From positions 2,665 to 66,664 of the IMG/VR virus record IMGVR_UViG_3300031112_000372: DNA of 64,000 nucleotides. One strand, given 5' to 3'. Within the stretch, counting starts at the first letter, position 1, and every line of letters begins with the position of its first letter. The translations under genes and the position numbers were made by a program. The stretch is from a virus. Lineage: Duplodnaviria; Caudoviricetes. Shown here piece by piece: positions 29,376 through 48,948 of the stretch. The notes beneath the pieces were generated by a model that did no database searches, was not told the origin of the DNA, and worked only from the letters and a program-made list of their open reading frames with translations.

Positions 29376-29378
29376 GGT

Positions 29379-29705: not shown

Positions 29706-29747
29706 TGATTTATCTCCAAAAGAAAAGGCGGATAATTCCGCCCGTCT

Positions 29748-30698: not shown

Positions 30699-30711
30699 TA
30701 GGCTTTACTCC

Positions 30712-31467: not shown

Positions 31468-31572
31468 TTAAAATCTCCTAGAGATACCGCCTTGCGGATT
31501 TAATTGTTTAGCCCTCTGCCTTGCTTCAGGCATTAAAAAACCGCCCGAAGGCGGTACGTTGTAAGAGAGCGA

Positions 31573-31677
31573 TTATTTCAGTGCCAAAATAATCGCGATA
31601 ACAATGATTCCTAAGGCTAAGCCCAAATTGGTAATTGCCTGCATTAGTCCTGCACGGTCAGCACCTTTCTCGCTCAT
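31573..31677 (-). CDS. Unannotated 34-aa single-TM peptide
   Basis: MSEKGADRAGLMQAITNLGLALGIIVIAIILALK*; purine-rich RBS-like sequence; bracketed by hairpins. Confidence 0.6.
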   Translation of the reverse strand: MSEKGADRAGLMQAITNLGLALGIIVIAIILALK

Positions 31678-31742
31678 TTTTCCATCTACCTTTAATTTAG
31701 ATATAAAAAACCACCTCTTGGTGGTGTGCTATTAAGTACATA

Positions 31743-32273
31743 TCAATGCTTTGGATCAAAATCTAATTTGTATTGAGCTTGCTTAACCAGATCATCTAAT
31801 TTACTTAATATTTTTGGTTTAACTTGCTTGCCACCCACACTCAAGATACGCCCAGCATTTGATAGAGTTTCAGTCCATTGTTCAGCAAGTAAATTAAGCT
31901 TTCCAATTTCTAGTTGAACACCTGCAAAGGTATCACGAGCAAGTTTTTCTTGTTCAATATAGTATTTTCGGATTTCATGCCCTTTATCATTGCGTTCCAT
32001 CATTCCTAAGTGTTTCGTCATATCTACAGAGATAATATATTCAATAGCTGTTTGGCCTGTTTTTGAAAGCTCGTCTTTTTTGACGACCTTTATATAATCA
32101 AAATTCTCTTCGAATTTACATTGATAGATTCGCCGCTTAATCCAATGTGAAAAATCAGATTTAATCTCTAACATTTCATGCAAATCACGAGCATTAACAC
32201 CAAGTTGTACTTCTCCATTTAAATCAAACTCAACAAATGGTGTCTGATTTTCAATTTTCATAATTTCATTCAT
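31743..32273 (-). CDS. AntA/AntB-family antirepressor
   Basis: VNARDLHEMLEIKSDFSHWIKRRI...F.ENFDY...EYIISVDMTKHLGMMERNDKG..IRKYYI motif. Confidence 0.85.
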   Translation of the reverse strand: MNEIMKIENQTPFVEFDLNGEVQLGVNARDLHEMLEIKSDFSHWIKRRIYQCKFEENFDYIKVVKKDELSKTGQTAIEYIISVDMTKHLGMMERNDKGHEIRKYYIEQEKLARDTFAGVQLEIGKLNLLAEQWTETLSNAGRILSVGGKQVKPKILSKLDDLVKQAQYKLDFDPKH

Positions 32274-32282
32274 ATCGTTTAC

Positions 32283-32342
32283 CTCGTTACCTTATAAAAA
32301 AAGCCGCATAGACATGTGGTAACGAGACACATCTACGCGGCT
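32283..32342 (-). promoter_or_regulatory. Structured leader/attenuator of the antirepressor
   Basis: Hairpin 32302-32342 followed by a U-run; its 9-nt loop is complementary to the 9 nt beside the RBS (32283-32291). Confidence 0.6.
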
Positions 32343-32582
32343 AAACTTTTCAAAAAGAACTGGCAAGCACACTGAATATGAAAAGCATGCTTTTTAAACC
32401 GTCGTTCTAACTAGTATTGAGTTGCCTAAATTTCAGGCATAAAAAAACCACCTCGAAAGGTGGTTTAGAATTTCTTAATAGTTGATGCGTATTTGTTATA
32501 AAAACAAGATGTTTGCACAACTATTCATTGTGGTAAAAATTAGCCCAAAACTGCTTTTGCTGTCAAGACTTTAAATTTTGAC

Positions 32583-33434
32583 TTAAACAAGATCTTTATT
32601 GTCTTTAATAATCATAATTCCATGAAGATCATTAAAAGACCTATCGTCAATTAAATCTCTATTATCTATTTGATCATAAGAATTAGTATTAATTAATCTC
32701 AAGACATAATCAGGTACGATTCCCTCATTAGGCAACTCTTCACTTACCTGAATACTTGAACCTTCAACCAATCTAAACTCTTTTGTTGCCTCCCACACTC
32801 TTTTTGGAAGAGAGATATTTGAATTTTGAGAGTGAGGAGGACAAACTAAAAAATGCCAAGGGTATATTTTGTCTATTACATCTCCTAAATGATCTTTTTT
32901 TATAGGTTTTTTTAATTTTTTAACATTTCCAACCGATAAAATAGAACAGCCGAAATGTTCCAATGTATATACATAATGGAAACATTTTACCCAAGCTAAG
33001 AGTGGATTTAAGTCATTTAATAAATCATTTTTTTGAATATACAAACAATATAGAGGAATTAAATTTTTGCTTTGTGCAGCCTTAATAAGCAATTCTGTCT
33101 GTGATTGTTCAGTCGGTTCACCTTTATTTTTTATATAATGCAATTGTTTAAATGAATTACTTTCGAAATTAATAATTTTAGCTTGTACTCGAAATCCAAT
33201 TCCTTTAGTACCAGTTGAATCAACAAACCACCATTCCCAGTCTGCTCCATTTTTTCCCTCTTCGTAACGCGTAAAGGTAGTGGTAATAACATCATATGGG
33301 TGCCTAAGCTTCAATTCTACCATTAGAGAATCTGTAATCGACTCTTCAAGCATTTGATGTTTTACTTGTCGTGCCTTACCCAACTGTATCCATGTTTGAT
33401 AAGATAGTTCTCTAAAAGTTTGACAAAGACTCAT
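32583..33434 (-). CDS. DUF6615-like protein, probable restriction-endonuclease-like fold
   Basis: EESITD...NGADWEWWF...FRVQAK motif. Confidence 0.6.
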   Translation of the reverse strand: MSLCQTFRELSYQTWIQLGKARQVKHQMLEESITDSLMVELKLRHPYDVITTTFTRYEEGKNGADWEWWFVDSTGTKGIGFRVQAKIINFESNSFKQLHYIKNKGEPTEQSQTELLIKAAQSKNLIPLYCLYIQKNDLLNDLNPLLAWVKCFHYVYTLEHFGCSILSVGNVKKLKKPIKKDHLGDVIDKIYPWHFLVCPPHSQNSNISLPKRVWEATKEFRLVEGSSIQVSEELPNEGIVPDYVLRLINTNSYDQIDNRDLIDDRSFNDLHGIMIIKDNKDLV

Positions 33435-33647
33435 CTAATATCCTCATTATAATTACATGAAATATATCAAAAAATTACCCCAAAAGGAGCAATGCTTTTG
33501 TCTTATGCTTTTAAAGTAAATTTTTCACCATCCATCAGATCCTTAAAGTCCATTCTGTCTTTATGCCAGTCATGACCTTTAGCTAATTCGAATATAGGCA
33601 TGTGGACGTCTCGACCGACTAAGTGCCTTAAATTATCTAATTTAAAA

Positions 33648-34241
33648 TCATTTTTTTTGACTATTTTCTTTCAAGAACCGATCTAAAACATAGCTAAAAT
33701 CAGAAATATCGAATTGTGCTGTTTTAACTCCATTATTGATTAAAGATATATCTACTTTTAACTGCTTACTTTTCTTAAGTAACTTAATAATTTCTTCTTT
33801 ATCTTGAGTACGTTTAACTTGAAAAGAATGTCCATCAAAATCATCTAAAACAAACATTTTAACTTTTACAGGTTTTTCTTCATCAAATTTGAATATAATG
33901 TCACAATCAGTTTCAGGACAAATAGCAAGTCCACTAGTTACAGTTAACAAAATACTATTATCATTAGACTCCTGTTTATACAGGAATATTAAACGTGAAT
34001 CTTTAGAATATGGTTCAGCTGTGGTATTTAAAAGCTCACTTGCAGTTGCCAAGTTATAGGTAACCTTTCCACTTTGTTCCTCAATATATTTTGAGGGAAT
34101 CCAGTTACTGCCGGGTGCTGGTACAAATTCAGCTTCCTTTTCATATAAATCGTTTTGCTTCAACCATTTAGAATCATCACAACCAGAAATAAGATTTATA
34201 AAAGATAGAATGAGTAGTGATTTTAGAAAGATCTTTGTCAT
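33648..34241 (-). CDS. Lipoprotein cargo, homologous to 19430..20002
   Basis: Lipobox ISGC; shared Cys pair and C-terminal NG..FD.S.F. Confidence 0.75.
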   Translation of the reverse strand: MTKIFLKSLLILSFINLISGCDDSKWLKQNDLYEKEAEFVPAPGSNWIPSKYIEEQSGKVTYNLATASELLNTTAEPYSKDSRLIFLYKQESNDNSILLTVTSGLAICPETDCDIIFKFDEEKPVKVKMFVLDDFDGHSFQVKRTQDKEEIIKLLKKSKQLKVDISLINNGVKTAQFDISDFSYVLDRFLKENSQKK

Positions 34242-34340
34242 TCAATTTAAACTCTATGATTTATTGTATAAGTGATAAGTTATATTAACATTATGATATA
34301 TAAAATTTTAATAAACTTAATTACTTTTTAAGAGCAATGA

Positions 34341-35447
34341 TTACAGTTCAAAATTTCTAAAAGCACTCTCATCCAACTTTCTTAACTCATCTAAGGTGTA
34401 TAACCTACCTTCCGGATCAAAGAACTTATCAAAATCAAACTGGCCTTCTTTGTAGAGTTTGAAACGTTTAGGCCCTAGCCATTCTTTCTGAAAAAACTCA
34501 TCTGTTTTCTTAAAGAACTCTCTAAATGTGGTGTTGGCATCCAGTTGGCCGATGAGTTGGCTACGCTCCTCTTTGGGGATGTCTTTAACTCTTCGCTCAT
34601 CCATAACAAACGGGCGTTCACCAACAAGTCGACCATCTTTCTCAACTGGTACCAGAATACTGCGACAATTGGGATGTAACGGCGGTACACGCTTTGCTGG
34701 ATCGTTAATTTCCCATATAGCACCATCTAAAGAGGCACAAAGTTTTGAAGTCCTTCCATCCAGCGTTGCAACCAATCGAACATATTCAAAGCCAATCTGG
34801 GTGAAGCTATTCAGATAAGTTTGATTCGCCACGTGGCTACGTAAAGTTCTAACAGTCCGATCAATATCAGACTTAGAACTAGTTAATAGACCATCCTCAA
34901 AATTAAGACGCTTGGTACCACGAATACGCTGAACAATCTCTTGATTGGTTTTGCCTGAGCTAATTCCATCGCGAATAGCATATTCAACTTTTTGGCGAGC
35001 GGTCTCGGCAATCTTAAATAGAAGATCATCAACCAACGCCCCGCCAACTAAAGGTGCTTTCTTGGCAGCAGAATAAAGTTTTCCGCCGTTAGGCTTTTTG
35101 ATCTTGCCGCCATACAACTTGGCTGTGTAATTCGCTTCATATACAGCCAATGCTGTAGCAGATACGATGAATGCTTCAGGTAAAGAAGTGTTTATGGCCG
35201 TAAACCACTGAGAGATTAAATCCCGAATCTCTTTGAGGTTTGTTGTTGTATATTGGCCACCACCAAGTGCTAATTTTTCAGAATCATTTAATTCATCTAA
35301 CAAATCCCGAAGTTTTGCCAGCATTAATGCTGACTCTTCATTAAAGATTGTTAGTAATTCATTAACTGATTGAGATGAAGCTCGATACAAATATGCTTGA
35401 TGTTGAGTTAATACCTCGATCAATGATTTATCTTCTTTTGAAGCCAT
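34341..35447 (-). CDS. Head morphogenesis / minor capsid protein (SPP1 gp7, Mu F-like)
   Basis: ATLDGRTSKLCASLDG...PPLHPNCRS motif. Confidence 0.9.
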   Translation of the reverse strand: MASKEDKSLIEVLTQHQAYLYRASSQSVNELLTIFNEESALMLAKLRDLLDELNDSEKLALGGGQYTTTNLKEIRDLISQWFTAINTSLPEAFIVSATALAVYEANYTAKLYGGKIKKPNGGKLYSAAKKAPLVGGALVDDLLFKIAETARQKVEYAIRDGISSGKTNQEIVQRIRGTKRLNFEDGLLTSSKSDIDRTVRTLRSHVANQTYLNSFTQIGFEYVRLVATLDGRTSKLCASLDGAIWEINDPAKRVPPLHPNCRSILVPVEKDGRLVGERPFVMDERRVKDIPKEERSQLIGQLDANTTFREFFKKTDEFFQKEWLGPKRFKLYKEGQFDFDKFFDPEGRLYTLDELRKLDESAFRNFEL

Positions 35448-35456
35448 TTCTCACCT

Positions 35457-36797
35457 CTACAAAGGCATGTTGTTCCGTTCAGTCTCAACTCGCTTCAGTT
35501 CTTCCTGAAAATCATGAGCTGGTAACTTACCAGTAGCGATGTATTCCCAATAGGTTTCGAATGAGTTCTTTCCAGCTATAGCGCCTTCATAAAGCTGCTT
35601 AGCAAGATTGATATCGTATTGCTGAACAATAAATTCAGGTTCTACCGTAAATGTATATTTGGATGCATCCAGCTTTAACCACTGTGCTGCATATTTGATA
35701 GCTTGTTCGATGGCCTGAGCTGCACACATCACAATGCTATGTAGACTTGCATGCTGATCATCCTGACGCGCACGGCGTGCTTCACCTGATTCTTGTGTAT
35801 TGGTATCGATGACCTTTGCACCTGCCTCTAATGCTGAATTCTTCTGGGCATCCATTTCACTTTTAGTCAGCTCAATGCCATCGCCGGAGATTTCCAGATA
35901 ATCACACTGTGCATCCTTAGGTAGACTCCAGACAGCCATAACACCAGTGACACTAATATCTTCGTCTCCATCAAGTCCACTAATCCAAGGCTGAGGATGA
36001 GCTGTGTGATGAAGTGACTGAAAATAGTCAGCACTGAGCTGGTAATACTTGAGTGCTGCTTTTGCCATAGTTAAAAGCGGAATAGTTCCAACATTTGGGG
36101 AATTATCCGTGGTACCACAGAATACAAATGGTGTGAATGAAAGCTGATTACCGCCAAGATCCGGAGTTTTATCCTCCACACTAGAACCATCAAACAAACG
36201 GACTGCTAAGGCTCCATCAATCATGGATAAAACGCGGTGGACCGTTTTTGTATCATGGCCAAACTCATCTCCACCGTTTTCAAACTGCTCCTCGAGCACT
36301 AATAGTTTCAGATCCTTACGGCCACCAATGCTGTTTTCCTTCCAGTTAATAATGGATAAGGCATCATATAAGGCGAAGTATGGAACGCCGTTAGCATCTA
36401 CATCCACCAGCAAGCCACAACGACCATATTCCAGTAACTCTAGGCAAATTCGGATAAAAAGCTGTTTTAATCCAAATCCGTCATTCGTTGCATTCTCTAT
36501 AAGCCCTTTTAATAAAGTACTTTCAATCACAATATTCGGCTCAAGCTTTGAGACCAGACCAATCATCGTACGAAGAGAATCTTGTACCCATAATGGATAC
36601 TGAGCACGACTTAGATAAGCTTTATAAATCTCTCCAGTCTTATCACCTTGCTTTTCAGCCTCAATCATTCCAGCCGACTTAGGAAGATACTTGGTTTGTG
36701 CCTGTTTAATCTGCTCTTCACCGGCAACGGCGTCGCGCATAATCAACCAGCTTTTTTGTGCAGCAATATACTGCGGATGTTTATCCGTAACTGCCAT
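35457..36797 (-). CDS. Portal protein (DUF4055-like)
   Basis: 446 aa directly after the large terminase. Confidence 0.85.
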   Translation of the reverse strand: MAVTDKHPQYIAAQKSWLIMRDAVAGEEQIKQAQTKYLPKSAGMIEAEKQGDKTGEIYKAYLSRAQYPLWVQDSLRTMIGLVSKLEPNIVIESTLLKGLIENATNDGFGLKQLFIRICLELLEYGRCGLLVDVDANGVPYFALYDALSIINWKENSIGGRKDLKLLVLEEQFENGGDEFGHDTKTVHRVLSMIDGALAVRLFDGSSVEDKTPDLGGNQLSFTPFVFCGTTDNSPNVGTIPLLTMAKAALKYYQLSADYFQSLHHTAHPQPWISGLDGDEDISVTGVMAVWSLPKDAQCDYLEISGDGIELTKSEMDAQKNSALEAGAKVIDTNTQESGEARRARQDDQHASLHSIVMCAAQAIEQAIKYAAQWLKLDASKYTFTVEPEFIVQQYDINLAKQLYEGAIAGKNSFETYWEYIATGKLPAHDFQEELKRVETERNNMPL

Positions 36798-36836
36798 AAA
36801 AACACCAATAAAAAAGCACCTGTAAGGGTGCGTTGT

Positions 36837-38123
36837 TTAAGCCATACCCCGAATCCGCCTGACCTGAACAATCCGTTTAATAATCGGGAACCGTTTCGCT
36901 AATGGATAGCCACCTGCATCACCAACATGGTCTAGGCCTGATTTCTTGTCAGGCATTCCAAAGTCATCATAAATCTGCTGTTCCAATGTCTCGGTAAACC
37001 GTGGGCACTTATAAGTATTAACCTTTAATGTCCGTTCTCCATCACCATTCAGGATCAAAGCATTCACGGCATTTAAACGGTCTTTAATGGTCGGGTTAGT
37101 GTTATTTACCTCTACCCGTAAACCATGCTGCCTTAAGATGGCATGATCCGATTCACTGCTATTTTTTGATGAAGTAGATTGTCCGGCAGCATCAGGAATA
37201 ATCGTAATTTCATGACCAGGGAAACGTTCAATAATCAGTTTGGCCATAGTTGGTGTATCACGAACTCCTACCAGCTCATCCAGCGCCAGAGGTTTACCGT
37301 CACGGATCACATACACCACGGCGGCCATTTTCAGAACGTTAAAGTCCATACCGATAATTAACGGCTCATTTGGCTTAATCTCTTCATCGGTATGGTTGAG
37401 CTTACGGTCAAAATCAGGATAAACAGCACCACTGGTTAAGTTAACGAACTGCCCACGTAAATAAGCCTCAATGAGCTGAGGTGGATAGGATTCCCGTAAA
37501 GATGCAATATAGTCATCTGGTAGATTGGCCTCATTGTCATAGGTTGAAGCCTGAATCATTCCATAGAGCTTTCGCTTGGCCTCTGATTTATTTGCCTCTT
37601 TAACGAATTGCTCATACGTAAATTTAAAACCTTCCGGTGTGGTCGCTACATCAATACCATTCAGCAAACCTGCCTGTTTAAAGCGCATACGTGCGATGAT
37701 CTTACGCCACGCTTGCTGAGCCTTGTGGGTAGCCATAACATCGAGCTCATCAATCAGTGCATGACCAATCTTAAAACCGACAATTGTTGCCGGCTTCTCC
37801 ATAGACCGGCAGATAATCGTGCTTCGATACTGACGACCGTAATAAAGATCGACCTCTTTATTCGATTCATAGATTTTGGTCTTTAAACCCCAGTCAAAAG
37901 CAACCTCATCGACTGTTGGATAAAAGATATCCCGAATCTGAGGATATGTCGGTGCAAAATAGCCCAGCCTAACTTTGGGGAATTCCCAAGCCTTATGGCA
38001 TAAAGAACCACAACCCACCCAAGTTTTTCCGCCCCCAAATCCGGATATAAATGCCCTGAATTTGTTTTCCATTTGAAGAAATCTAGCCTGAGGCACATTC
38101 AGCGTCGGATTGATGTTCGGCAT
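36837..38123 (-). CDS. Terminase large subunit
   Basis: Walker A GFGGGKT, Walker B ALIDELD, nuclease GMDFN...DHVGDA. Likely start MPNIN at 38123. Confidence 0.93.
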   Translation of the reverse strand: MPNINPTLNVPQARFLQMENKFRAFISGFGGGKTWVGCGSLCHKAWEFPKVRLGYFAPTYPQIRDIFYPTVDEVAFDWGLKTKIYESNKEVDLYYGRQYRSTIICRSMEKPATIVGFKIGHALIDELDVMATHKAQQAWRKIIARMRFKQAGLLNGIDVATTPEGFKFTYEQFVKEANKSEAKRKLYGMIQASTYDNEANLPDDYIASLRESYPPQLIEAYLRGQFVNLTSGAVYPDFDRKLNHTDEEIKPNEPLIIGMDFNVLKMAAVVYVIRDGKPLALDELVGVRDTPTMAKLIIERFPGHEITIIPDAAGQSTSSKNSSESDHAILRQHGLRVEVNNTNPTIKDRLNAVNALILNGDGERTLKVNTYKCPRFTETLEQQIYDDFGMPDKKSGLDHVGDAGGYPLAKRFPIIKRIVQVRRIRGMA

Positions 38124-38604
38124 CTTTTTTACTCGCATCTACAACTTGAATGGTTACCTTGACCGGTGTTGGATCATCTGCACCCTCACCGTCGCCCGTC
38201 CTGATCTTTTCAATCTCAAGCTGCTTTAACTCAATATTCAGGAGTGTTAAGTCATAACCCTGCATTTCTTCCCGAACCTGTTTAATCACACCTTGCTTCA
38301 TTAGCCGGTTGTTCTTCCAGCCTTCATAAATCTTCTGAAGTTCTTTAATACGATAGGCTTTATTAGCAAGTGGAATGTCATAAACATTCTTTTGGAAATC
38401 TGCTCTGGTTTTATTAAACAAAGTCACCAGTTTCTTGCTTAGGTTTTTCCCCGTTGCTTTTGTTGGGTCATATAAAGCGACCTGCTGACGTTCAATTTCG
38501 ATGTTAAATTCTTGCTTTACAGCATCTGCCACCTGTTGAGGGGTTTCAAAGCAAGCAAGAGACTGAACTATAAAGATTTTTACAGGCTCTCTTAGTGTTG
38601 CCAT
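38083..38604 (-). CDS. Terminase small subunit (DUF2280-like)
   Basis: FIVQSLACFETPQQVADAVK pattern; overlaps the large subunit start. Confidence 0.8.
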   Translation of the reverse strand: MATLREPVKIFIVQSLACFETPQQVADAVKQEFNIEIERQQVALYDPTKATGKNLSKKLVTLFNKTRADFQKNVYDIPLANKAYRIKELQKIYEGWKNNRLMKQGVIKQVREEMQGYDLTLLNIELKQLEIEKIRTGDGEGADDPTPVKVTIQVVDASKKDAEHQSDAECASG

Positions 38605-38662
38605 ACTTGCCCCTTCGTAAAGCTACGTAAAGCAAAACAGGCAAAAAAAAGAGCCTTATGGC

Positions 38663-39316
38663 TCAATTGATTACGCAGTTTCCGCAGCAATTTGAAATAT
38701 CTAGATTTGAAACAAACGGCGGATTCTTCGCAACTTCAACAAGACGTTTAACGCTCTTACTTGCTCCCCACCGTTTAGTTACACCAATGAATTCTTCGAC
38801 ATCGTGACCTGATAAATAGTGCTTAGGTAAACCAGTTGAGCTGCTAAAGATCATCTCGCCATCTTCATCACGTTCTACACCTATATGGTAAAGTTCATGC
38901 TCAAGCAAAGCACAGAATTCACTATCGTTAGCTTTATCGCAAAAGGAAGCATCGATCGTAATCAGGTAAGTTGGTATAAATCCGAACCATTCTCGCATCT
39001 GTTGCTCTTGTCTTGCTTTACGCCAGCCACCGACATTAAACATAACCTTTTCACACTGCCCAAGAATCATGGCTTGTTTGCTTTTAAATGCTGACGAAGC
39101 CCAAGCAAACGCCAGAAACTCTTCATTGTCATGAAGCAGCTCAGCAATATGGTCATGATCTGGATTGTGAAGAGGTCCACCAAGCGTTAGATAATTAGCA
39201 ACAACCCATGTTTTCAAATCTGGTGCCGGTATTAAACGGATTGCTTCCTCTTCTTCAGCTTGGTCAATAAAGTCAGTTGGTGGAAATGGTCTGATCTGTT
39301 CCATTAGTTTCACCAT
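38663..39316 (-). CDS. Putative phage metallopeptidase
   Basis: ALLEHELYHI (HExxH) plus HDVEEF. Confidence 0.8.
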   Translation of the reverse strand: MVKLMEQIRPFPPTDFIDQAEEEEAIRLIPAPDLKTWVVANYLTLGGPLHNPDHDHIAELLHDNEEFLAFAWASSAFKSKQAMILGQCEKVMFNVGGWRKARQEQQMREWFGFIPTYLITIDASFCDKANDSEFCALLEHELYHIGVERDEDGEMIFSSSTGLPKHYLSGHDVEEFIGVTKRWGASKSVKRLVEVAKNPPFVSNLDISNCCGNCVIN

Positions 39317-39384
39317 TAAAAATTAATTTTATTCATAAAATTAATTAGATTACAATTAATTAAATTTAACACTTATGGTTAAGC

Positions 39385-40191
39385 ATGTTCTCTGATAAAG
39401 ATCTTATAAATCGAAAAGATAAAGATTACTCAATCATTCCATTTAAAGAAGAAAATATCCATCCAATTGGTTATGACTTAACAATGAGTGATCTTATTTT
39501 TTCAAAGAAAAATGGACTAATAACACTTGATAATCAAAATAATTATGTAATAAAACCTTTAGATACAATTCATATTTTAACTAATGAAATTATTTGGTTA
39601 TCTGGTAGAGTTTCAGGAACTTTACATTCACGTACCTCACTTGCCTTCAAAGGTTTCTCTAACATTTCGACAACAGTAGACCCTAAGTGGATTGGTCAGT
39701 TACTTGTAACTATGACTAATATGACAAATAATGAAATTACACTAAAAAAGGACAGACCGTTTTGCACTCTAAATATTCATAAGTTAAATACCCCCACTGA
39801 AACTGAGTTACATAAAAAATCCTTTATTACTAGCTATCTAACTGAGGAAATTAACAAGCAAAACAATGAGTATTTCAAAAAAGTACAAGAATTTATAACA
39901 AAAGAAGAATTGGATCAGTTTAAGAAAATCCTCTCTAAAAAAAATATTAAAGAATTAAGTGAATTAAAAAACACTATCACCAAAAATGAAAAAATTGATT
40001 TATTCTATAAGCTAGTCAGTTTAGTTTATTATTTTTTCTTAATAGCTTGTATAACTCTTATTATATACTCGATATTTAAATGGGATTTCTTTGCTCCATT
40101 TTTTCCAAATATTGAATATGACACCACAGTTTTCACATCCCAAATTTCTACTCTTTTACTTTTTGTCTTCGCATTGATTAATAGGAAATAA
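39385..40191 (+). CDS. dCTP deaminase/dUTPase-fold domain with substituted catalytic residues, fused to C-terminal TM segments
   Basis: GYDLT, SRTSLAFKG and VDPKWIGQLLVT align with Dcd motifs GRSSLARLG and IDPGWSGCIVLE; hydrophobic C-terminus. Confidence 0.8.
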   Translation: MFSDKDLINRKDKDYSIIPFKEENIHPIGYDLTMSDLIFSKKNGLITLDNQNNYVIKPLDTIHILTNEIIWLSGRVSGTLHSRTSLAFKGFSNISTTVDPKWIGQLLVTMTNMTNNEITLKKDRPFCTLNIHKLNTPTETELHKKSFITSYLTEEINKQNNEYFKKVQEFITKEELDQFKKILSKKNIKELSELKNTITKNEKIDLFYKLVSLVYYFFLIACITLIIYSIFKWDFFAPFFPNIEYDTTVFTSQISTLLLFVFALINRK

Positions 40192-40192
40192 A

Positions 40193-40702
40193 ATGATAAT
40201 TAGTAATTTTGATAAAATTTTCGACAAGAATGATATTGTTATTTATACCCAAGGTGTATTTGATCTATTACATAATGGACATATAAATTATTTAATTAAT
40301 TCAAAAAAATATGGAAATAAACTTATTGTAGGTGTGGACTCGGATGAAAAGGTTCAATTAAGAAAAGGGTTGGATCGCCCGTTTCAAAATTGGGAAACTA
40401 GAGTCCAAAATTTATTAAATCTAAATTTAATTGATTATATTTTTAAAAAAAATATAAATATAGATAGCTCATACTACATTGATATGATTAAGCCTTCTAA
40501 AATAATCATTTCTACAGATCACAATCCGAATGTTACAAGACTAAAATTTTTAGAAAAAGAGAAAATTGAATTGATTGTTATTAAGAGAACAGAAAATATT
40601 TCAACAACGCAAATTTTAAAAGCTAAAAGATTTAAACAAGAACAAAAAACCTCACATTTGCGAGGTCTTTCTTATGAATTACTATTACTTCGACCACTAT
40701 AA
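40193..40702 (+). CDS. HIGH-motif nucleotidyltransferase (cytidylyltransferase / RfaE domain II-like)
   Basis: GVFDLLHNGH, LIVGVDSD, KGLDRP and ISTT motifs; starts 1 nt after the upstream stop. Confidence 0.88.
   Translation: MIISNFDKIFDKNDIVIYTQGVFDLLHNGHINYLINSKKYGNKLIVGVDSDEKVQLRKGLDRPFQNWETRVQNLLNLNLIDYIFKKNINIDSSYYIDMIKPSKIIISTDHNPNVTRLKFLEKEKIELIVIKRTENISTTQILKAKRFKQEQKTSHLRGLSYELLLLRPL
40645..40671 (-). terminator. Putative tR'-like terminator downstream of the late promoter
   Basis: Minus strand AAAGACCTCGCAAATGTGAGGTTTTTT hairpin plus U-tract. Confidence 0.6.
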
Positions 40703-40735
40703 CGCAAAAATAGCATTTACCCTGTACAGGGTCAA
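40696..40735 (-). promoter_or_regulatory. Putative late promoter (pR'-like)
   Basis: TTGACC-17 bp-TATTTT, followed 5 nt later by a second -10-like TATAGT; 12-bp palindrome CCCTGTACAGGG at 40720-40731. Confidence 0.6.
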
Positions 40736-40780: not shown

Positions 40781-42031
40781 CTACGAGTTAGTACCTAATT
40801 GATCAATCAAATCTTTCCCAAGTTGCCTTGTGTTCTTTTTACCACCTTTACTATTTAAATGACTGATACCCTTGGTAGTTGCCAACTCTAGTAATACTCC
40901 ATAAGCCGATACTTTCTCGCCATTTTTATAAACTAGAATAGTGGTATCTTCGAGCTGCTCTATCAAATAATCACCATATTCAACTGAACGTTTCAAATGA
41001 TCTTTTGAAGTGTTAATAATTTCATAGTTAAAGTTGGCTGCAATTTCTATCAACTGATAAATATTACCTTTGCCCCATTGATTGGAAATAACATATATGT
41101 CTCCATTACTCATCTGTAACTGATGTTCTTTCTCAATAAAATAACGGTCATATCTTTGCTCATCCAGCTGGTTAAGTTTAACAAGCAATCTATCCAGATT
41201 CGGATATTCATTAAACTCAGCCCTAAGATTTTCGATATTTTTATTATTGATTTCTTCAAACCGACATTTGATAATTTCGAGGGCCAGATAACGCTTGTTC
41301 AGAGTTTTGCCATTAAACGTGAAACTTGAATAATCTCTTGCATTTGTAAGCTTGGCTTCCCGTCTTTCTTCTGATTTTTTCTGCGCCTTAATCTGATAAT
41401 CCTTTGCTTCAGGTAAAGGTATAATTTGTTGAATATCAACCAGAATCTGTGAATTGTGAGTATATGGCTGCATTCTTATACAAGTAATATCCAGATCACG
41501 CTCATTAAGCCAGATCACTGAGGTGGTTAGTTCTTTTGAAAAGTTTGATGAGACCAGAATGATTCTCACGTCATCCGCAAAATTACTTTCATCCAGGTTA
41601 TCAACATCTACAAAATTTGAAATTTCTTTACGTGCATTGTCATGATCAAAAGATGGATAGCCATTATTTATTTTATATCGACGATAGATATCTATCGCTA
41701 TATCCAGAGTCATCGTAGAAACCATAGATGCATATCGAAGAGCCTGAAGTTCCATATGGTCACCAGTATCTGTACGCTTCAGCTCTATAATTACAAGATT
41801 TGCATTTTTATCGATTGCCAGTAAATCAATTCTTCTCTTTGAGCCATCCCATTCAGCATACTCTTCAGCAATAATGAGACAGTCCTCAGCAATTACCCCG
41901 ATATTTTTCTTGAGTGCCTGCTGGAGATGCAATCTTTCCAGAATAGCTTCTTCTTTAAAAGACGTGGTCTCAACTGCATTTAGTTCATTATTATTTAAAG
42001 TAAATATTGGCATGGAATTCAATCTCTGCAA
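40781..42031 (-). CDS. NucS/EndoMS-like PD-(D/E)XK nuclease-domain protein with extra C-terminal domains
   Basis: RIDLLAIDKNANLVIIELKR...QALRYA motif. Confidence 0.75.
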   Translation of the reverse strand: MQRLNSMPIFTLNNNELNAVETTSFKEEAILERLHLQQALKKNIGVIAEDCLIIAEEYAEWDGSKRRIDLLAIDKNANLVIIELKRTDTGDHMELQALRYASMVSTMTLDIAIDIYRRYKINNGYPSFDHDNARKEISNFVDVDNLDESNFADDVRIILVSSNFSKELTTSVIWLNERDLDITCIRMQPYTHNSQILVDIQQIIPLPEAKDYQIKAQKKSEERREAKLTNARDYSSFTFNGKTLNKRYLALEIIKCRFEEINNKNIENLRAEFNEYPNLDRLLVKLNQLDEQRYDRYFIEKEHQLQMSNGDIYVISNQWGKGNIYQLIEIAANFNYEIINTSKDHLKRSVEYGDYLIEQLEDTTILVYKNGEKVSAYGVLLELATTKGISHLNSKGGKKNTRQLGKDLIDQLGTNS

Positions 42032-42940: not shown

Positions 42941-43450
42941 ATGGTAGATATCGTCGATAGCGCAACCCGTAGCCGTATGATGTCAAATATTAAAGGACGG
43001 AATACAAAACCTGAATTGCTCATCCGTAGCCTTCTTCATGCGCAGGGCTTCCGCTTCCGTATCCACCGTAAGGACCTGCCAGGTAAACCTGATATCGTAT
43101 TACCCAAATACAAGGCTATCATTTTTATACATGGCTGTTTCTGGCATGGCCATCAAAACTGCCGGTTGTTCAAGCTACCAGCCAGCCGTACCGAATTCTG
43201 GGAAGCAAAAATTTATAAAAATCAGGAAAATGACCTGAAAGCCAAAGAGCTTCTTTTAAATAGTGGCTGGAGAATATGTACCATCTGGGAGTGTGCAGTA
43301 CGTCGCTCTAAAAAAGACCCAGTAGCACTTATGGATATTCTGACAAAATGGTTATCTGGTTCTGAACAATTGCTTGAAATAGATGAGCCGATGATTATGC
43401 ATAAACAGACAAGTGATGCCTTGGGTGAAATTAATATGCCAGCTTCCTGA
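42941..43450 (+). CDS. vsr: Very short patch repair endonuclease
   Basis: RSRMMSNIKGRNTKPE, GKPDIVLPKY, FIHGCFWHGH motifs. Confidence 0.95.
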   Translation: MVDIVDSATRSRMMSNIKGRNTKPELLIRSLLHAQGFRFRIHRKDLPGKPDIVLPKYKAIIFIHGCFWHGHQNCRLFKLPASRTEFWEAKIYKNQENDLKAKELLLNSGWRICTIWECAVRRSKKDPVALMDILTKWLSGSEQLLEIDEPMIMHKQTSDALGEINMPAS

Positions 43451-43576
43451 GCTAACCTACTAAGTATGGGTTTAATCCAGGTATTGTCCTCTTTTAAATA
43501 ATTCGTTATCTTTCATACCACTCATGAATTTAAAACAATTTATTCTTTAATTTTAAAAATGTAATCTGGTCTCGAA

Positions 43577-44557
43577 ATGAATCAACAAAATAAAATAGAT
43601 TTACTGAATGCACTTCATATTCTCATAGCAAACAATGTAATTACACAGAATGCATATACCAGCAGATATAAAGGTTTTGTAGCAGAACTTGATTTTTTAC
43701 CATGGATGAGAAAAAACAGGCCTGCTGTTCCACTTTTTACAGGAGGTTACTTTTTACCTGCAGTGAAAAAAGCCGATTCTCTTCAATTCCCCGTCTACTT
43801 CACTATTTGCAATTCCTCGCCAGATGAATATATAGAAATTTATAAAAAAATAGCTCTTGTCCCCTGTAAGAGTATGTATTTTATTCAATGGGATGAATCT
43901 ATACCGGTAAATGAATGGCCTCAAATAGATGTAATGAATATTCAGTATCCTGTTCCGGTACCCTCATTAGTTTGTTACGAGTTTTCAGTACAGGACAATA
44001 CATTTAAGCAGGTACAATTTAGTACTTTTACTAATAATTTTATCAGCCAGACACCAAGCCGGAGTGCCAATGCAATCACATCCCAAGCTTTCAATGCTGC
44101 AATAAATATGCTTCTCCCGTTTGAATATAACGATATTTTAAGTTTATATGTGCAGCGGCTTATATTTGATGGATATATTGGGTATGCCAAGGTTAAAGGA
44201 ACTCCAAGCGATATTGACTCAATCATTTTTTCAGAAAGCTTAAAAAAATATAGTCTGATTGAGATTAAAGACAAGGATTTGAGTAAAAGGCCCCCTCAGG
44301 GATTCGGTATGGATCTTAGACGTATAGATGCCCTACTCAGATTAAGTGAAATTACAGGTTGGCCAACATATTACCTTGTAAGGCATATTAATAATCAGCA
44401 CGAAAGAAAGTTTCTAGGCTGGAAAATGATCAGTATGGAAAAGTTTAATTCTAAACTGGCATCACCAGTGATTCAGGGTGGAAGCGGGATGGCATCACCC
44501 GATGGGCAATATCCAACAAGAATATGCCCAGTTAAGGAATTTAAACCATTAGAATAA
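43577..44557 (+). CDS. Putative restriction endonuclease, PD-(D/E)XK
   Basis: PSDID...LIEIKDKD motif; convergent and overlapping with the methyltransferase 3' end. Confidence 0.6.
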   Translation: MNQQNKIDLLNALHILIANNVITQNAYTSRYKGFVAELDFLPWMRKNRPAVPLFTGGYFLPAVKKADSLQFPVYFTICNSSPDEYIEIYKKIALVPCKSMYFIQWDESIPVNEWPQIDVMNIQYPVPVPSLVCYEFSVQDNTFKQVQFSTFTNNFISQTPSRSANAITSQAFNAAINMLLPFEYNDILSLYVQRLIFDGYIGYAKVKGTPSDIDSIIFSESLKKYSLIEIKDKDLSKRPPQGFGMDLRRIDALLRLSEITGWPTYYLVRHINNQHERKFLGWKMISMEKFNSKLASPVIQGGSGMASPDGQYPTRICPVKEFKPLE

Positions 44558-45841
44558 TTTCAGCTGTTTCTCTGCGACAATCTTTTCAGCCTTATCAAGA
44601 CAGCTAACCATTTGTCCTGCTACAGCTTCAATCACCTTGACGCATACAGAGTTGCCGAACTGTTTATAGATCTGGCCATGTGAAACGGCATCAACTATAT
44701 AGTTCTCAGGAAATCCCTGTAAGCGCGCACACTCGCGTGGAGTCAGTTTACGCGGATTCTTGCCATGCTCGGCCTGCGAAATAAGGATTTCCGAGCCGTC
44801 CTTGTAATACCGGGCACTTAATGTGTTTGTATATGGACTGTCTCCGGTATAAAGCGTATAGCCAAATCCGTTACCCTTGATTCCATGTTCTTCCTTACGG
44901 CGCTGGTGACCTTCCCAGAGGCGATCCGAAATCGTATAGACATCTTCACTCTTTTTGAGTTTTGAGACATCTTCAAGGATATCACCGAGTTGGGTCTGCT
45001 TTTTGGGAGGAACAGGCCAGCTGAAGAGCTCATCAAAGTTACACTCTTCACCAAAGTAATTCTTGTCAAAACCTACAAGGAAAATACGCTCACGGTTCTG
45101 TGGTACACCAAAATCTGCAGCGCGAAGTACCTTCACATCCACCCAGTAATTCAGTTTTTCCGAAAGCGCCTTTTTGGTTTCATCAGAAAGCTCAACCTCA
45201 AGATCAAGTTCCTGGTCAAACTCGCCACGCAAAATCTCGAGAATTGTTTTGAGTGTACGGCCCTTGTCATGCCCCTGTAGCTGCTTCACGTTTTCAAGCA
45301 GGAATGCTTTCGGGCGCTTCTCTACAAGAATACGCTGGATCTCGAAGAACATGGTACCGCGGGTATCCTGAAAGCCCTGACGCTTACCAGCCTGTGAAAA
45401 CGCCTGACACGGGAAACCACCCAGAAGAATGTCATGATCAGGAATATCAGCTGCCTTGATCTGTGTGATGTCACCTGAAGGTAATTCACCAAAATTAGCA
45501 GCATAGGTTTTCTGCGCAAACTTGTCCCACTCGGAACTGAATACGCACTTCCCTTTTAATTGCTGGAAAGGTAAACGGATTCCGCCAATACCGGCGAAAA
45601 GGTCAATAAACGTGAATTTATGCTTCTGGTCAGGACGTTCCCTGTATGGAGCTTTATCTGGCAAGGCAATGATCTGTTCCCATTTTGCTTTTGTAGGAAC
45701 ATGCTCGCCACTTTCCCAGCCCCTGACTGTTCTTTCACCATTCTCTTTCATATCAAGCAGCAAAGCGAACTCTTTGAGGGATAACCCCATGTTATTTCTT
45801 TTTTGTCTGATATAAGATGAATCAAGATCAACGTACTTCAC
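44549..45841 (-). CDS. C5-cytosine DNA methyltransferase with an N-terminal HTH (M.SsoII/Dcm-like)
   Basis: FAGIGG, GFPCQ, ENV, QNRERIF and GNSV motifs; TRD TLSARYYKDGSEILI resembles CC(W/N)GG enzymes. Confidence 0.95.
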   Translation of the reverse strand: MKYVDLDSSYIRQKRNNMGLSLKEFALLLDMKENGERTVRGWESGEHVPTKAKWEQIIALPDKAPYRERPDQKHKFTFIDLFAGIGGIRLPFQQLKGKCVFSSEWDKFAQKTYAANFGELPSGDITQIKAADIPDHDILLGGFPCQAFSQAGKRQGFQDTRGTMFFEIQRILVEKRPKAFLLENVKQLQGHDKGRTLKTILEILRGEFDQELDLEVELSDETKKALSEKLNYWVDVKVLRAADFGVPQNRERIFLVGFDKNYFGEECNFDELFSWPVPPKKQTQLGDILEDVSKLKKSEDVYTISDRLWEGHQRRKEEHGIKGNGFGYTLYTGDSPYTNTLSARYYKDGSEILISQAEHGKNPRKLTPRECARLQGFPENYIVDAVSHGQIYKQFGNSVCVKVIEAVAGQMVSCLDKAEKIVAEKQLKLF

Positions 45842-45917: not shown

Positions 45918-47696
45918 ATGGAAACTAGATTGTTATCAGATTTAGATGGCTTAATAAATAAATGTAGAAAAGACTATGAAAATTTAGCTTATAAAGGGGA
46001 CATCCAAATTAATTCGGAGCTTGCAGCTCTTATTGAAGAATATTTAAAAGATAAGAATGATCGTTACATTAAGGCATTACCTTATAGTATTGAGATAGTA
46101 AACAAAGGGAAGTTAAAAGCTTTAATCCCTTCAACTTGGTTGTGGATAGCTAATTGTTTCTGGCCACTAGTAGAAGCATTAGAACTTTATAGCTCGACTT
46201 TCGATACACTGGTAAAACAACTAAAAGCTGAGAAGAATGTAGATGAAGAGCTATTTAAGAAATTCTTAAAAGCTCTTCCTTTGTCAGCGTTGCAATCTGA
46301 TTTAACTTTTATACTTGATGAGCCACAAGAACAGATAATTGAAGATCTTCTTTCAACAAAATTAAGAACAGGCAATAAACCTTTAACTCAAAATGAAATA
46401 AATCAGGTACAACAATATAGAAAAGACTTAGACCGAATTGCAAAGGATTATTTTAAAAATACTCCCGAACAGTATGAATACTTTAATCATTTTCTCTATG
46501 ACAGAGACTGGTGGTTTAAAGGGACTGGTAAAACATTAGACAGAACAGATTACTGTGAATCCAGCCTTCTTCTGGCAACACAAATGATTGTGGCAAATGC
46601 GGCAAAGTTATATCCATTAACTTCAAGTTTTGCCAATCATAAAGATTTGCGGGATGCCTTTGATGCTCTTCCAAAAAGTATTGAAGTTTTAGAAGAAAAA
46701 ACCTCATCTAAACCTTTGAATATTTTAAATTTCTCTGGTGAGAATATCATTTTCTACGGTGCTCCTGGCACAGGGAAAAGCTTTGCAATTGAAGAAAAAG
46801 TCAAAGGACATACTTCAGTTCGTACTGTTTTTCATCCCGAAACCCAGTATGGTGATTTTGTAGGATGTCTAAGACCTTCTATGGATGACAATGGTATTGA
46901 GTACAGCTTCAAAAAAGGTCCTTTTATTGAAGCACTTCTTAAGGCTCTTAAAGACCCTGAACATCACTATTATTTAATTATTGAGGAAATCAACCGCGCA
47001 CCTGCAGCAGCCGTTTTCGGAGAGCTGTTTCAGTTACTTGATAGAGATAGCAATGGGGAAAGTGAATACCGGATCGATATTAATGACAAGGATCTTCTGA
47101 ATTTATTAAATAAAGAACATCCGGGAGGTTTCCCTGATAATAAACTTTATATCCCAAATAACCTTAGCCTCTACGCGACCATGAACAGTAGTGATCAGGC
47201 TGTTATGCCCCTTGATACAGCATTTAAACGACGCTGGAAGTTTGAATACATGCCACTTGATTTCTCAACCTCACCATCAGGTTACTTTAAAATCAATACA
47301 GAAAGTGGAGAAAAGACTGTTAGCTGGTCACAATTTGCCCAAGTAGTAAACTTAATATTATCTACCCTATCAATTCCGGAAGATCGACATCTAGGTCCAT
47401 GGTTTGTAAACGAAAATGAAATTTCTGATCTGAAAAATGCCAAGAGAACCCTGACTGGTAAAGTCCTAATGTATATCTGGGATGATGTACTTCGACATAG
47501 TGAGCGATCAGCTCTCTTCAATACAGATATTAAAACCTTTGGGTCTCTCGTTAAAAAAATTGAGAATAATGAAATTATTTTTTCTGAAAACTTTTTAAAG
47601 GTATTAGAAAAAGAAATCGAAAAAACTAATGCTGAAACTCAAAATGAGAACTTAAAGCCGGAAATTACTGAGGAAGAGGATACTGGTGAAAACTAG
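45918..47696 (+). CDS. McrB-like AAA+ GTPase
   Basis: GAPGTGKS, LIIEEINRA, TMNSSD (NxxD signature), LDTAFKRRW. Confidence 0.9.
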   Translation: METRLLSDLDGLINKCRKDYENLAYKGDIQINSELAALIEEYLKDKNDRYIKALPYSIEIVNKGKLKALIPSTWLWIANCFWPLVEALELYSSTFDTLVKQLKAEKNVDEELFKKFLKALPLSALQSDLTFILDEPQEQIIEDLLSTKLRTGNKPLTQNEINQVQQYRKDLDRIAKDYFKNTPEQYEYFNHFLYDRDWWFKGTGKTLDRTDYCESSLLLATQMIVANAAKLYPLTSSFANHKDLRDAFDALPKSIEVLEEKTSSKPLNILNFSGENIIFYGAPGTGKSFAIEEKVKGHTSVRTVFHPETQYGDFVGCLRPSMDDNGIEYSFKKGPFIEALLKALKDPEHHYYLIIEEINRAPAAAVFGELFQLLDRDSNGESEYRIDINDKDLLNLLNKEHPGGFPDNKLYIPNNLSLYATMNSSDQAVMPLDTAFKRRWKFEYMPLDFSTSPSGYFKINTESGEKTVSWSQFAQVVNLILSTLSIPEDRHLGPWFVNENEISDLKNAKRTLTGKVLMYIWDDVLRHSERSALFNTDIKTFGSLVKKIENNEIIFSENFLKVLEKEIEKTNAETQNENLKPEITEEEDTGEN

Positions 47697-48948
47697 TTTA
47701 AAAAAGAATCATTTTCTTCTGGATAGAAGTTTAATAAATGAATTACCCTCTTCAATAGCAAACTATATTCAGGGTCAGGGCTTACTAAGCTCATTCAATG
47801 GATTTGGGATCTCATTTTGTGGCTTGGTTTGCTATCAGGGAGAGAATTATTTCTTTTTCCCACGGCAGTCAGATATAGAAAAAATCAAAACTGATCCGGA
47901 ACAGTACACAGCTCTTCTAATGCAGGCACTTTTTAAATTTGCCCAAGATTCAAAAACACAAGTCACCAGCCCTGAAGATGGAGCTGACGAAACCGGTTTT
48001 GAAAAACTGGAGATGTTCAAATACCTGATTAATGATTTCCAGCAACACGGCATTTTTAAGAATGAAGAAGTTCTTTTAAGGAAGAATTCCGGAAAAACAG
48101 ACTGGAAAAAAACCATTAACCGGTCGGTTTCTTTCCCTGACAGTTCTGGTCGCCCTGTTTATCTGGATGTGTACGGGAAACAGAGAACTTCTACCAATTC
48201 GGAAATTACACGCATTCATGCCGGAATCCTTAAACAGGTATATAAAAACTACGGGTTTATTTTTACAGGCAAGAACAAGGTTCCATACTCATTAAAACAG
48301 TATGGTGAAACTGCCCTGTCTACTGATGCCCAGATTTCGGTTTTAAAGAATGAAATCAGGAATCATTTTGCCGATCGCCAGACTCTTCTTCTAAAAACGC
48401 TTATTGAGTATCTTGAAGCCTATAAGGGTAATAAACAGAAGAACCAGATCATTGGCGTTACACGCTTTCATGTCGCTTGGGAACACATGCTTTCCAGATG
48501 CCTTGATAATGTCATTGATATTAATAGCCGGTTACCTAAACCCGTATTTATAAAGCCAGATGGAACAGCAATACCGGCGAAAAAATCAGGTATGCGAACT
48601 GATATCGTCATTGAAGACAAGGCAAACAAAAAACTGACTATTCTGGATGCCAAATATTATGAAGCAACCAGTATAGAGAATGCTCCGGGCTGGGCAGATC
48701 TCGTCAAACAGTTCTTCTATGAAAAAGCAATTTCAATAATGCCGGAATTCACAGGCTATAAATTTGAAAATGCCCTGATCTTTCCAGGGCAAAAAAACGC
48801 ATTTGATAAGATTCATATGCAAAATCAAAAAAATGGTAATTATCTGGATACCGACTTCCCTATCATCAAATGTATATATATTGATCCAATTGATGTAATG
48901 GAAAGCTATAAAAACTCGGGAAAACTAAAAGACTTATTTCGCTCATAA
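47686..48948 (+). CDS. McrC/LlaJI-like restriction endonuclease subunit
   Basis: GKTDWKKTI and MRTDIV...ILDAKYY...DLVKQFFY motifs; overlaps the McrB stop. Confidence 0.85.
   Translation: MKTSLKKNHFLLDRSLINELPSSIANYIQGQGLLSSFNGFGISFCGLVCYQGENYFFFPRQSDIEKIKTDPEQYTALLMQALFKFAQDSKTQVTSPEDGADETGFEKLEMFKYLINDFQQHGIFKNEEVLLRKNSGKTDWKKTINRSVSFPDSSGRPVYLDVYGKQRTSTNSEITRIHAGILKQVYKNYGFIFTGKNKVPYSLKQYGETALSTDAQISVLKNEIRNHFADRQTLLLKTLIEYLEAYKGNKQKNQIIGVTRFHVAWEHMLSRCLDNVIDINSRLPKPVFIKPDGTAIPAKKSGMRTDIVIEDKANKKLTILDAKYYEATSIENAPGWADLVKQFFYEKAISIMPEFTGYKFENALIFPGQKNAFDKIHMQNQKNGNYLDTDFPIIKCIYIDPIDVMESYKNSGKLKDLFRS

Follow-up and report, generated by a model that had tools for sequence, protein, structure and literature searches.

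Two adjoining genes of a virus assigned to the Caudoviricetes (Duplodnaviria) raise the question of what a membrane protein built on the fold of a pyrimidine-nucleotide enzyme, and a small nucleotidyltransferase (NTase), might do together in a prophage. They lie in a stretch of 64,000 nucleotides, positions 2,665 to 66,664 of the IMG/VR record IMGVR_UViG_3300031112_000372, which we call the window. Gene 1 (39385-40191, + strand) encodes 268 aa and combines, according to the list of open reading frames (ORFs), Pfam, an AlphaFold2 (AF2) model and alignment, a domain of the dCTP deaminase (Dcd)/dUTPase fold with a helical stalk and a C-terminal hairpin of two transmembrane (TM) helices. Gene 2 (40193-40702, + strand) encodes an NTase of 169 aa, placed by Pfam, NCBIfam and PDB profile matches in the cytidylyltransferase/HldC subfamily of the HIGH superfamily. 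An original prediction, drawn from the sequence by eye, had taken the pair for a nucleotide-signalling defence system in which a catalytically altered Dcd serves as a membrane-bound sensor.

Our analysis leads us to a tentative reading of this kind, to which we give a probability of roughly 0.4: the pair would be an anti-phage module in which the nucleoside diphosphate (NDP)-linked product of gene 2 controls gene 1, a nucleotide-gated membrane effector. We favour a defence module because one NTase clade serves two unrelated membrane-anchored partners with nucleotide-binding domains, and because the gene 1 family has kept its pocket, shed three catalytic elements and is repeatedly encoded next to producers of unusual pyrimidine nucleotides, a proven defence enzyme among them.

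Conservation of the gene pair

A word-indexed search of 5.8 billion non-redundant protein clusters returned five clusters of gene 1 relatives, and a further search of this kind returned seven relatives, figures that understate the family sizes since known members were missed. Where downstream DNA was available, the NTase-linked gene 1 proteins fell into five sequence clusters with 38-62% identity (L001-3, L004-6, L007, L173 and the window itself), and in all five an NTase gene follows immediately 3' of gene 1, overlapping it or 1 nt apart, as the co-occurrence check attached to the original prediction had anticipated. Phylogenetic trees group these gene 1 proteins in a single clade (SH-aLRT 99) and their NTases likewise (SH-aLRT 90). 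The gene pair is a conserved unit, and it is found in at least two mobile contexts: in L001-3 it occupies the same slot of a related prophage, with AAA_15/DUF3696 and GmrSD_N genes nearby, and in L004/5 it stands beside a Tn7-like TnsA/TnsB/TniB/TniQ module. Comparison of the pair (blastn) and of gene 1 (tblastn) with GenBank phages gave no match, a plasmid search recovered solely distant Bacillus-group members of the gene 1 family, and a search of IMG/VR yielded one distant locus.

Gene 2 and a sister module

Gene 2 matches CTP_transf_like (PF01467) at 2e-12, with 47.6 bits against a gathering cut-off of 21, and the NCBIfam model rfaE_dom_II at 3.7e-24; the latter score, 85.2 bits, falls short of the 181.5 bits that the model demands for an equivalog, and the TagD model gives 59 bits. 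Its motifs read H27-N-G-H30, K58-G-L-D-R62-P63 and R132-T-E-N-I-S-T-T139, and H27, H30, K58, R62, S137 and T138 are invariant among its relatives, which bears out the intact HNGH and KGxxRP motifs of RfaE-II/cytidylyltransferase type recognised by eye. The conserved core comprises residues 16-148, and the final ~21 codons are unconserved. A profile of the clade finds ECT (3elb, 1e-24), HldC (5x9q, 6e-21), CCT (4zcp) and TagD (1coz) in the PDB, over a range of 1e-24 to 1e-12. An NMNAT/NadD-type assignment was considered and rejected, the same four enzymes being the best matches in both PDB and NCBIfam and PPAT a marginal one.

Because the catalytic motifs are present and their key residues invariant among relatives, gene 2 is probably an active enzyme that couples a nucleoside monophosphate to a phosphorylated small molecule. 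Judged by these scores, none of the named enzymes is its orthologue: the sub-equivalog score, the separate clade and the lack of any heptose pathway gene nearby place it outside RfaE-II/HldC proper. With ECT, HldC, CCT and TagD it shares HxGH, KGxxRP and RTxxISTT; it differs from them in falling far below every NCBIfam equivalog cut-off, and in that its clade partners TM-anchored Dcd-fold or Macro proteins, not envelope genes.

Relatives of gene 2 were sampled at 80 metagenome loci, and most of the low-scoring ones occur in polysaccharide-type contexts with LicD, GT2 and multi-TM genes. At the loci of the closest relatives (L088, L089/90, L093, L101), a gene for a protein with two N-terminal TM segments and a Macro domain (2TM-Macro) comes first, and the NTase gene overlaps it by 4 nt or begins after a gap of 9 nt. 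A CmdT/PD-T4-9_A-like ADP-ribosyltransferase (ART) is encoded beside the NTase in L088, an island with a phage-type integrase, and in L099. These 2TM-Macro/ART modules span L088:5159-6405, L089:3784-5151, L093:31-881, L101:642-1927 and L099:36-1000. In the NTase tree, the enzymes linked to the Dcd-like 2TM protein and those linked to Macro/ART are sister groups in a joint clade (SH-aLRT 95), which is separate from the HldE-type, polysaccharide-type and deaminase-fused NTases. One small NTase clade is coupled, then, to two unrelated membrane-anchored partners with nucleotide-binding folds: dUTPase/Dcd, which takes pyrimidine deoxynucleotides, and Macro, which takes ligands of the ADP-ribose type. 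By analogy, this is the layout of signal-plus-effector immune systems, and type II Thoeris uses effectors of 2TM-Macro architecture (10.1101/2024.01.03.573942; PMC11204291). The Macro partners were themselves considered as type II ThsA members and rejected, since none matched in PADLOC and the architecture alone is alike. As far as sequence comparison goes, NTase plus 2TM-Macro, with or without ART, is an undescribed module of two or three genes. The pairing of a signal-making enzyme with a membrane effector, as originally predicted, stands as a layout, now strengthened by the sister clade; the signalling, the pore and the trimer we infer.

The likeness of gene 2 to ECT, HldC, CCT and TagD, together with the LicD, GT2 and multi-TM genes that accompany many of its distant relatives, could also point to envelope modification, lysogenic conversion or prophage nucleotide metabolism, with gene 2 supplying a surface polymer with CDP-glycerol, CDP-choline, CDP-ethanolamine or ADP-heptose and gene 1 serving as an accessory membrane protein. 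We regard this as very improbable: the cassette contains no transferase, flippase or polymerase, its NTase clade stands apart from the polysaccharide-context clades in the tree, and its neighbours in the window are defence genes. We know of no role of the Dcd/dUTPase fold in envelope synthesis.

Among the distant relatives of gene 2, an N-terminal cytidylyltransferase-like domain is fused to a dCMP-type deaminase module in P0162, P0167, P0169, P0173, P0180, P0184, P0186 and P0187. A cytidylyltransferase-like gene adjoins a dCMP-type deaminase gene at L091:3128-5451, where NadE lies just upstream, and at L109:3890-5289. The deaminase module, ~280 aa in length, matches the PADLOC dCTPase model at 2.5e-26.

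Gene 1 and the dUTPase branch

Residues 1-142 of gene 1 (39385-39810, + strand) form a β domain of the dUTPase/Dcd fold, delimited by Pfam, a PDB profile, Foldseek, residue statistics and alignment with Dcd. Residues 3-139 match the Pfam families DCD (PF22769) at 3e-10 and dUTPase (PF00692) at 7e-06, and Foldseek returned Dcd and DCD-DUT structures from E. coli (1xs1), M. tuberculosis (2qxx) and M. jannaschii (1ogh) with a probability of 1.0 and TM-scores of 0.6-0.78, in agreement with the fold first proposed for this protein. The AF2 model, built on a 48-sequence alignment, has a mean pLDDT of 87.5 and comprises a β core (residues 1-133), helices (146-231) and the TM hairpin; pLDDT is 95-98 at the C-terminal hairpin and low at 187-200 of the stalk. 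In Dcd and dUTPases, the C-terminal lid closes over the triphosphate. In its place gene 1 has a helical linker or stalk (residues 143-209; 39811-40011, + strand; AF2 and alignments) that is variable across the family. It is followed, on the evidence of hydrophobicity, AF2 and alignment, by the membrane part (residues 210-265; 40012-40179, + strand): the hydrophobic segments TM1 (210-228) and TM2 (247-265), joined by a conserved loop, and then a basic RK tail. Conserved residues of this region are W233, N242, Y245 and D246 in the loop and Q253 in TM2. The exchange of the lid for a helical linker and two hydrophobic segments had been described by eye, and the AF2 model and the Dcd alignment both show it.

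When gene 1 is aligned by MAFFT with Dcd of E. coli K-12 (b2065), its T84, F88 and T109 fall at the positions of S111, R115 and E138, and D128 is retained as D99, a mapping identical to that of the original prediction. The signature of gene 1 reads GT-x-H81-S-R83-T84-S85, T96-T97-x-D99-P-x-W102-x-G104, N112 and T128. In the terms of dUTPase motifs it keeps motif I (GYDL), motif II (R83-T84-S85) and motif III (D99-P-K-W102-I-G104), and it is without the motif-IV Gln (Thr128 there), an equivalent of Arg115 (F88) and the C-terminal lid with motif V. Compared with a dCTP deaminase, gene 1 has the fold and lacks Glu138, Ser111, Arg115 and the triphosphate lid; compared with a dUTPase, it has the motif III Asp and the motif II Arg-Ser and lacks the motif IV Gln and motif V/lid. 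On these residues, gene 1 cannot deaminate.

The closest solved relatives of the domain are archaeal Dcd-like dUTPases, not Dcd. A profile match to 8y1w was obtained at 4.7e-34, and the top Foldseek hits were 9ln3, 9ln0 and 8y1w, at ~30% identity and target-normalised TM-scores of 0.82-0.86; 9ln0 and 9ln3 (P. furiosus-type P45) are titled "thermostable enzyme dUTPase P45" and 8y1w (Thermococcus pacificus) is titled "T. pacificus dUTPase with dUMP". E68, R83, S85, D99-P-x-W, G104 and N112 are common to these proteins and gene 1, which differs from them in having no LAR arginine (F88), motif-IV Gln (T128) or YRGNYQGS-type lid, in adding the stalk and the 2-TM hairpin, and in H81 and T96/T97, which are specific to its family. 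With Dcd and DCD-DUT it has the pocket Asp in common, and it differs from them in the three substitutions (S111/R115/E138 to T84/F88/T109), the absent lid and the membrane anchor. The description of gene 1 as a dead Dcd did not survive this comparison: its nearest solved relatives are named dUTPases and likewise lack the deaminase Glu, whose absence, on sequence grounds, marks the dUTPase branch and not a dead enzyme. Because archaeal Dcd-like dUTPases also lack this Glu, its loss alone is no proof of a sensor, and gene 1 may still act as a pyrophosphatase.

The wider gene 1 family

An exhaustive profile search with the gene 1 family recovered 2015 representatives with a threshold of E<=1e-3 and 753 with one of E<=1e-10. 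Gene 1 is not the lone oddity that it had seemed: its family is large, and the other members go without an NTase. A C-terminal hydrophobic segment is present in 125 of 134 full-length top matches (93%), and two such segments in 93 of the 134. Across 241 family members, E68 and G104 are conserved in 100%, N112 in 99.6%, D99 in 98%, T96/T97 in 97%, T128 in 92% and H81 in 89%, and Glu at 109 and Arg at 88 are absent from all 241. Automatic annotation labels the family solely "dCTP deaminase family protein". PHROGs and the ESM Atlas returned nothing beyond the generic labels "dCTP deaminase" and "heptose adenylyltransferase".

The genomic neighbours of the family were sampled at 80 loci from Cyanobacteria, Bacillota, Bacteroidota, archaea and others. 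A thymidylate synthase (TS)-like/PterinBD gene and a dCMP deaminase gene, usually with a nucleoside-deoxyribosyltransferase-like gene, are neighbours at 27/80 loci; a kinase-plus-zinc-deaminase protein of 660-820 aa is encoded at 20/80, a dUTPase and/or canonical Dcd at 11/80 and ThyX at 1/80; the remaining 21/80 have none of these (TS-like, kinase-deaminase, dUTPase/Dcd or ThyX). With matches of ~1e-100 to the PADLOC dCTPase model, the kinase-deaminase proteins correspond to the dCTP deaminase already established in defence, which joins a kinase to a zinc deaminase (Tal et al., AvcD). The Dcd-like TM proteins next to them matched no PADLOC model. In Kongming, KomB is a nucleotide-cleaning pyrophosphatase fold (a dead HAM1) turned sensor, and it acts alongside a deaminase (PMC13434031). 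By analogy, the 20 loci suggest a Kongming-like arrangement in which the deaminase makes an odd nucleotide and a crippled pyrophosphatase reads it. The window cassette differs from both the defensive dCTP deaminase and Kongming in having an NTase as partner, with no deaminase or N-terminal kinase-like domain, and gene 1 differs further from Kongming in its dUTPase fold in place of HAM1 and its membrane hairpin in place of a SIR2 effector. The original prediction had set the pair apart from dCTP-depletion defence of the dCMP-deaminase type; this was correct for the fold, and the genomic context speaks against so clean a separation, since relatives of gene 1 adjoin that very defence gene and distant relatives of gene 2 are fused to dCMP-type deaminases.

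In Bacillota, including Clostridia, a Dcd-like TM protein of 300-440 aa is encoded directly beside the PADLOC dCTPase protein, in either gene order (L029, L035, L040, L053-L056, L058, L070, L071, L074-L076, L079-L081, L083, L086 and L087, mostly near position 5000). At these loci, the Dcd-like TM gene would be an unrecognised second gene of the dCTP deaminase defence. Elsewhere the family gene stands alone in restriction islands. One such Dcd-like 2TM gene, in a Bacteroidota metagenome-assembled genome (L009:3781-8466), is flanked by a DndB-like gene on one side and by HsdM and PD-(D/E)XK genes on the other, and its product is 33% identical to gene 1 over residues 1-253. Cyanobacteria have a conserved operon of a TS-like gene with PterinBD-DUF4346, a dCMP deaminase, a Dcd-like 2TM protein and a nucleoside-2-deoxyribosyltransferase-like protein, beside BtuR and adenylate kinase (L020, L023, L025, L026, L028, L030, L031, L033, L034, L036, L037 and others among L019-L068, and L085). 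A housekeeping role for this operon was considered; the patchy presence of the gene 1 family, in 28 of 121 Nostocaceae genomes sampled, where some copies contain stops, weighs against it.

These associations bear most directly on an alternative in which gene 1 would be a working pyrophosphatase of dUTPase/dCTPase-like type tethered to the membrane and gene 2 a consumer of CTP or dCTP. The two would drain or alter the deoxypyrimidine pool and so halt DNA synthesis by incoming phage, a form of defence with neither a signal nor a pore. This alternative agrees with the dUTPase names of the nearest solved relatives, with the retention of D99, R83, S85 and motif I, with family operons containing dCMP deaminase, TS-like, ThyX, dUTPase, Dcd or the defensive dCTP deaminase, and with the distant gene 2 relatives fused or adjacent to dCMP-type deaminases; depletion is, moreover, an established defence strategy (10.1101/2021.04.26.441389). 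We nonetheless consider such a pyrimidine-pool pair rather unlikely. Lost from the family are the equivalent of Arg115, the Gln of motif IV (92% have Thr) and the entire lid with motif V, and at several loci an adjacent gene already encodes a canonical dUTPase or Dcd, so that another would be superfluous; the conserved 2-TM hairpin with its loop motif, and the 2TM-Macro partners of the sister NTase clade, are left unexplained.

Prophage setting and neighbouring cargo

The TerL protein of the window shares 88.7% identity with its counterpart in Acinetobacter phage vB_AbaS_TRS1, and the host is, for this reason, probably Acinetobacter. The gene pair diverges from the late operon on the - strand, which runs from a PhageMetallopep gene (38663-39316) through a DUF2280-type TerS, TerL, portal and onward. 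Both ORFs were found where the original prediction had seen a two-gene AT-rich operon opposing the late operon: the genes are 1 nt apart, an AGGAAA Shine-Dalgarno-like sequence precedes the ATG of gene 2, and the GC content of the pair is 26.1% vs 39.7% for the late operon (29000-39316).

The pair opens a cargo slot that extends from 39.4 to ~50.5 kb, between the late operon and the early genes, on whose side lie an HTH_36 replication gene (52308-53249) and a CI-like repressor gene (54720-55415). Convergent with gene 2 is a gene for a 416-aa protein of the PADLOC candidate defence family PDC-S11 (40781-42031, - strand; 8.6e-118) with a NucS_C-like nuclease region. Further along are a Vsr mismatch endonuclease (42941-43450), a 326-aa ORF without family label that is possibly the restriction enzyme (43577-44557) and an HTH-Dcm C5-cytosine methylase (44549-45841, - strand); together (42941-45841) they resemble a type II restriction-modification unit with Vsr. 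AAA_5 (McrB-like, 592 aa) and RE_LlaJI (420 aa) genes with an 11-nt overlap (45918-48948) form a McrBC/LlaJI-type restriction pair, after which come a 208-aa ORF without family label and a DUF4145 protein (49687-50424); a 1-TM ORF is also among the genes of the slot. The equivalent place in the related phage TRS1 holds none of this 39.4-50.5 kb cargo. With PDC-S11, Vsr and the Dcm methylase, AAA_5 and RE_LlaJI, and the DUF4145 protein in the same slot, the gene pair sits in a phage-defence island, which gives the prediction of a defence function the setting it called for.

A perfect 12-nt inverted repeat, AATTAATTTTAT / ATAAAATTAATT, at 39321-39346 lies 5' of gene 1, within the 68-nt intergenic region that separates it from the divergent PhageMetallopep gene, and is a possible operator. 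A terminator-like hairpin of 12 pairs with a T run (40644-40671, - strand), inside the unconserved 3' tail of gene 2, could serve as the end of the convergent PDC-S11 gene and/or as a tR'-like site of the late operon. Just 3' of gene 2 is a weak sigma-70-like promoter match, TTGACC-17-TATTTT with an upstream TG (40707-40735, - strand); in a promoter scan, such sites were not more numerous across the region than in shuffled sequence. If used, this putative promoter would send transcripts antisense through the gene pair into the late operon, and if it is the late promoter, late transcription would silence the pair during the prophage's own lytic growth.

Such silencing on induction, the tight translational coupling of the two genes, and their small size and AT-richness as prophage cargo at a moron position would also suit a toxin-antitoxin-like or superinfection-exclusion system, with gene 1 a membrane toxin or injection blocker that gene 2 neutralises or matures by contact, with no diffusible ligand. 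We think this improbable, because the small-molecule catalytic motifs of gene 2 are all strictly conserved, the effector-like gene precedes that of the enzyme, both partner types (Dcd-fold and Macro) are ligand-binding folds, and solitary relatives of gene 1 exist without any neutraliser.

Discussion

The mechanism that we propose for an anti-phage module would run as follows. The pair would travel as a mobile conflict module, carried here as prophage cargo. Gene 2 would take a nucleoside triphosphate, probably one of the pyrimidines (CTP or dCTP, for example), and couple it to a small phosphorylated compound to yield NDP-X. The gene 1 protein, presumably trimeric, as Dcd and dUTPase enzymes all are, would present its dUTPase-fold pocket as a receptor, or a very slow hydrolase, for the pyrimidine nucleotide made by gene 2. 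Occupancy of the pocket would be relayed along the stalk to the 2-TM hairpins, and these, with six helices in each trimer, would damage the membrane barrier and cause abortive infection. The ligand might open the effector, following the activator logic of CBASS and Thoeris, or a constitutive ligand might hold it shut, following the guard logic of Hailong and Panoptes. We slightly prefer the guard version because the enzyme, at 140-170 aa, has no sensor domain. Ligand identity, trimeric state, membrane damage and defence itself are inferred.

Several points weigh against this proposal. Gene 1 retains D99, a catalytic-type Asp, as well as R83 and S85, and may simply be an enzyme; the nearest solved relatives of its domain carry enzyme names, and a two-helix hairpin is equally fit as a membrane anchor or as a pore. 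Cytidylyltransferases of the gene 2 subfamily are, to our knowledge, known solely as makers of biosynthetic precursors, not of signals. The NTase-linked clade is tiny, with 5 clusters among 5.8 billion. In the wider family, 76 of the 80 loci have no NTase within 5 kb and many members accompany ordinary-looking deoxypyrimidine enzymes, for which reasons a metabolic role for the gene 1 domain also fits.

Type II Thoeris, Hailong (HalA/HalB) and Panoptes likewise combine a small nucleotide-handling enzyme with a TM protein that has a cytoplasmic ligand-binding domain, and our comparison with them is an analogy of layout. In Hailong, the NTase keeps its TM effector shut (PMC13434031), and Panoptes, a signal-plus-membrane-effector defence, is compared here as a guard type (PMC12657218). 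The window cassette differs from all three in that a HIGH-superfamily cytidylyltransferase and a putative receptor of the dUTPase/Dcd fold would both be new to such systems. It contains no CD-NTase, pyrimidine cyclase or TIR enzyme, gene 2 being of the HIGH superfamily, and falls outside CBASS, Pycsar and Thoeris. Neither gene matched any PADLOC model, and full-text literature searches for the domain combinations found nothing, in keeping with the earlier statement that no system with this domain pair had been described.

A broader proposal, which we hold to be possible but doubtful, is that a HIGH-superfamily cytidylyltransferase produces a messenger, an NDP-alcohol or NDP-sugar, for which membrane effectors of different kinds can serve as readers: a crippled dUTPase-fold trimer on a 2-TM hairpin in the window, a 2TM-Macro protein in the sister clade. 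More broadly, all membrane-anchored Dcd-like proteins would be effectors gated by pyrimidine nucleotides, each responding to what its own partner enzyme makes, be it dCTP deaminase, a ThyX/TS-like enzyme or the NTase. The cassette is just 1.3 kb long and offers clear targets for point mutation, which makes it directly testable, and the gene 1 family is large, with hundreds of 50%-identity clusters. Even as a pyrimidine-pool pair, the two genes would constitute a new form of nucleotide-pool defence. If the signalling module that we favour is real, the cytidylyltransferases, makers of CDP- or ADP-linked precursors, and the dUTPase/Dcd fold, both known from housekeeping chemistry alone, would join immune signalling, and a hitherto unrecognised membrane protein would prove to be a frequent partner of the dCTP deaminase already known in defence.

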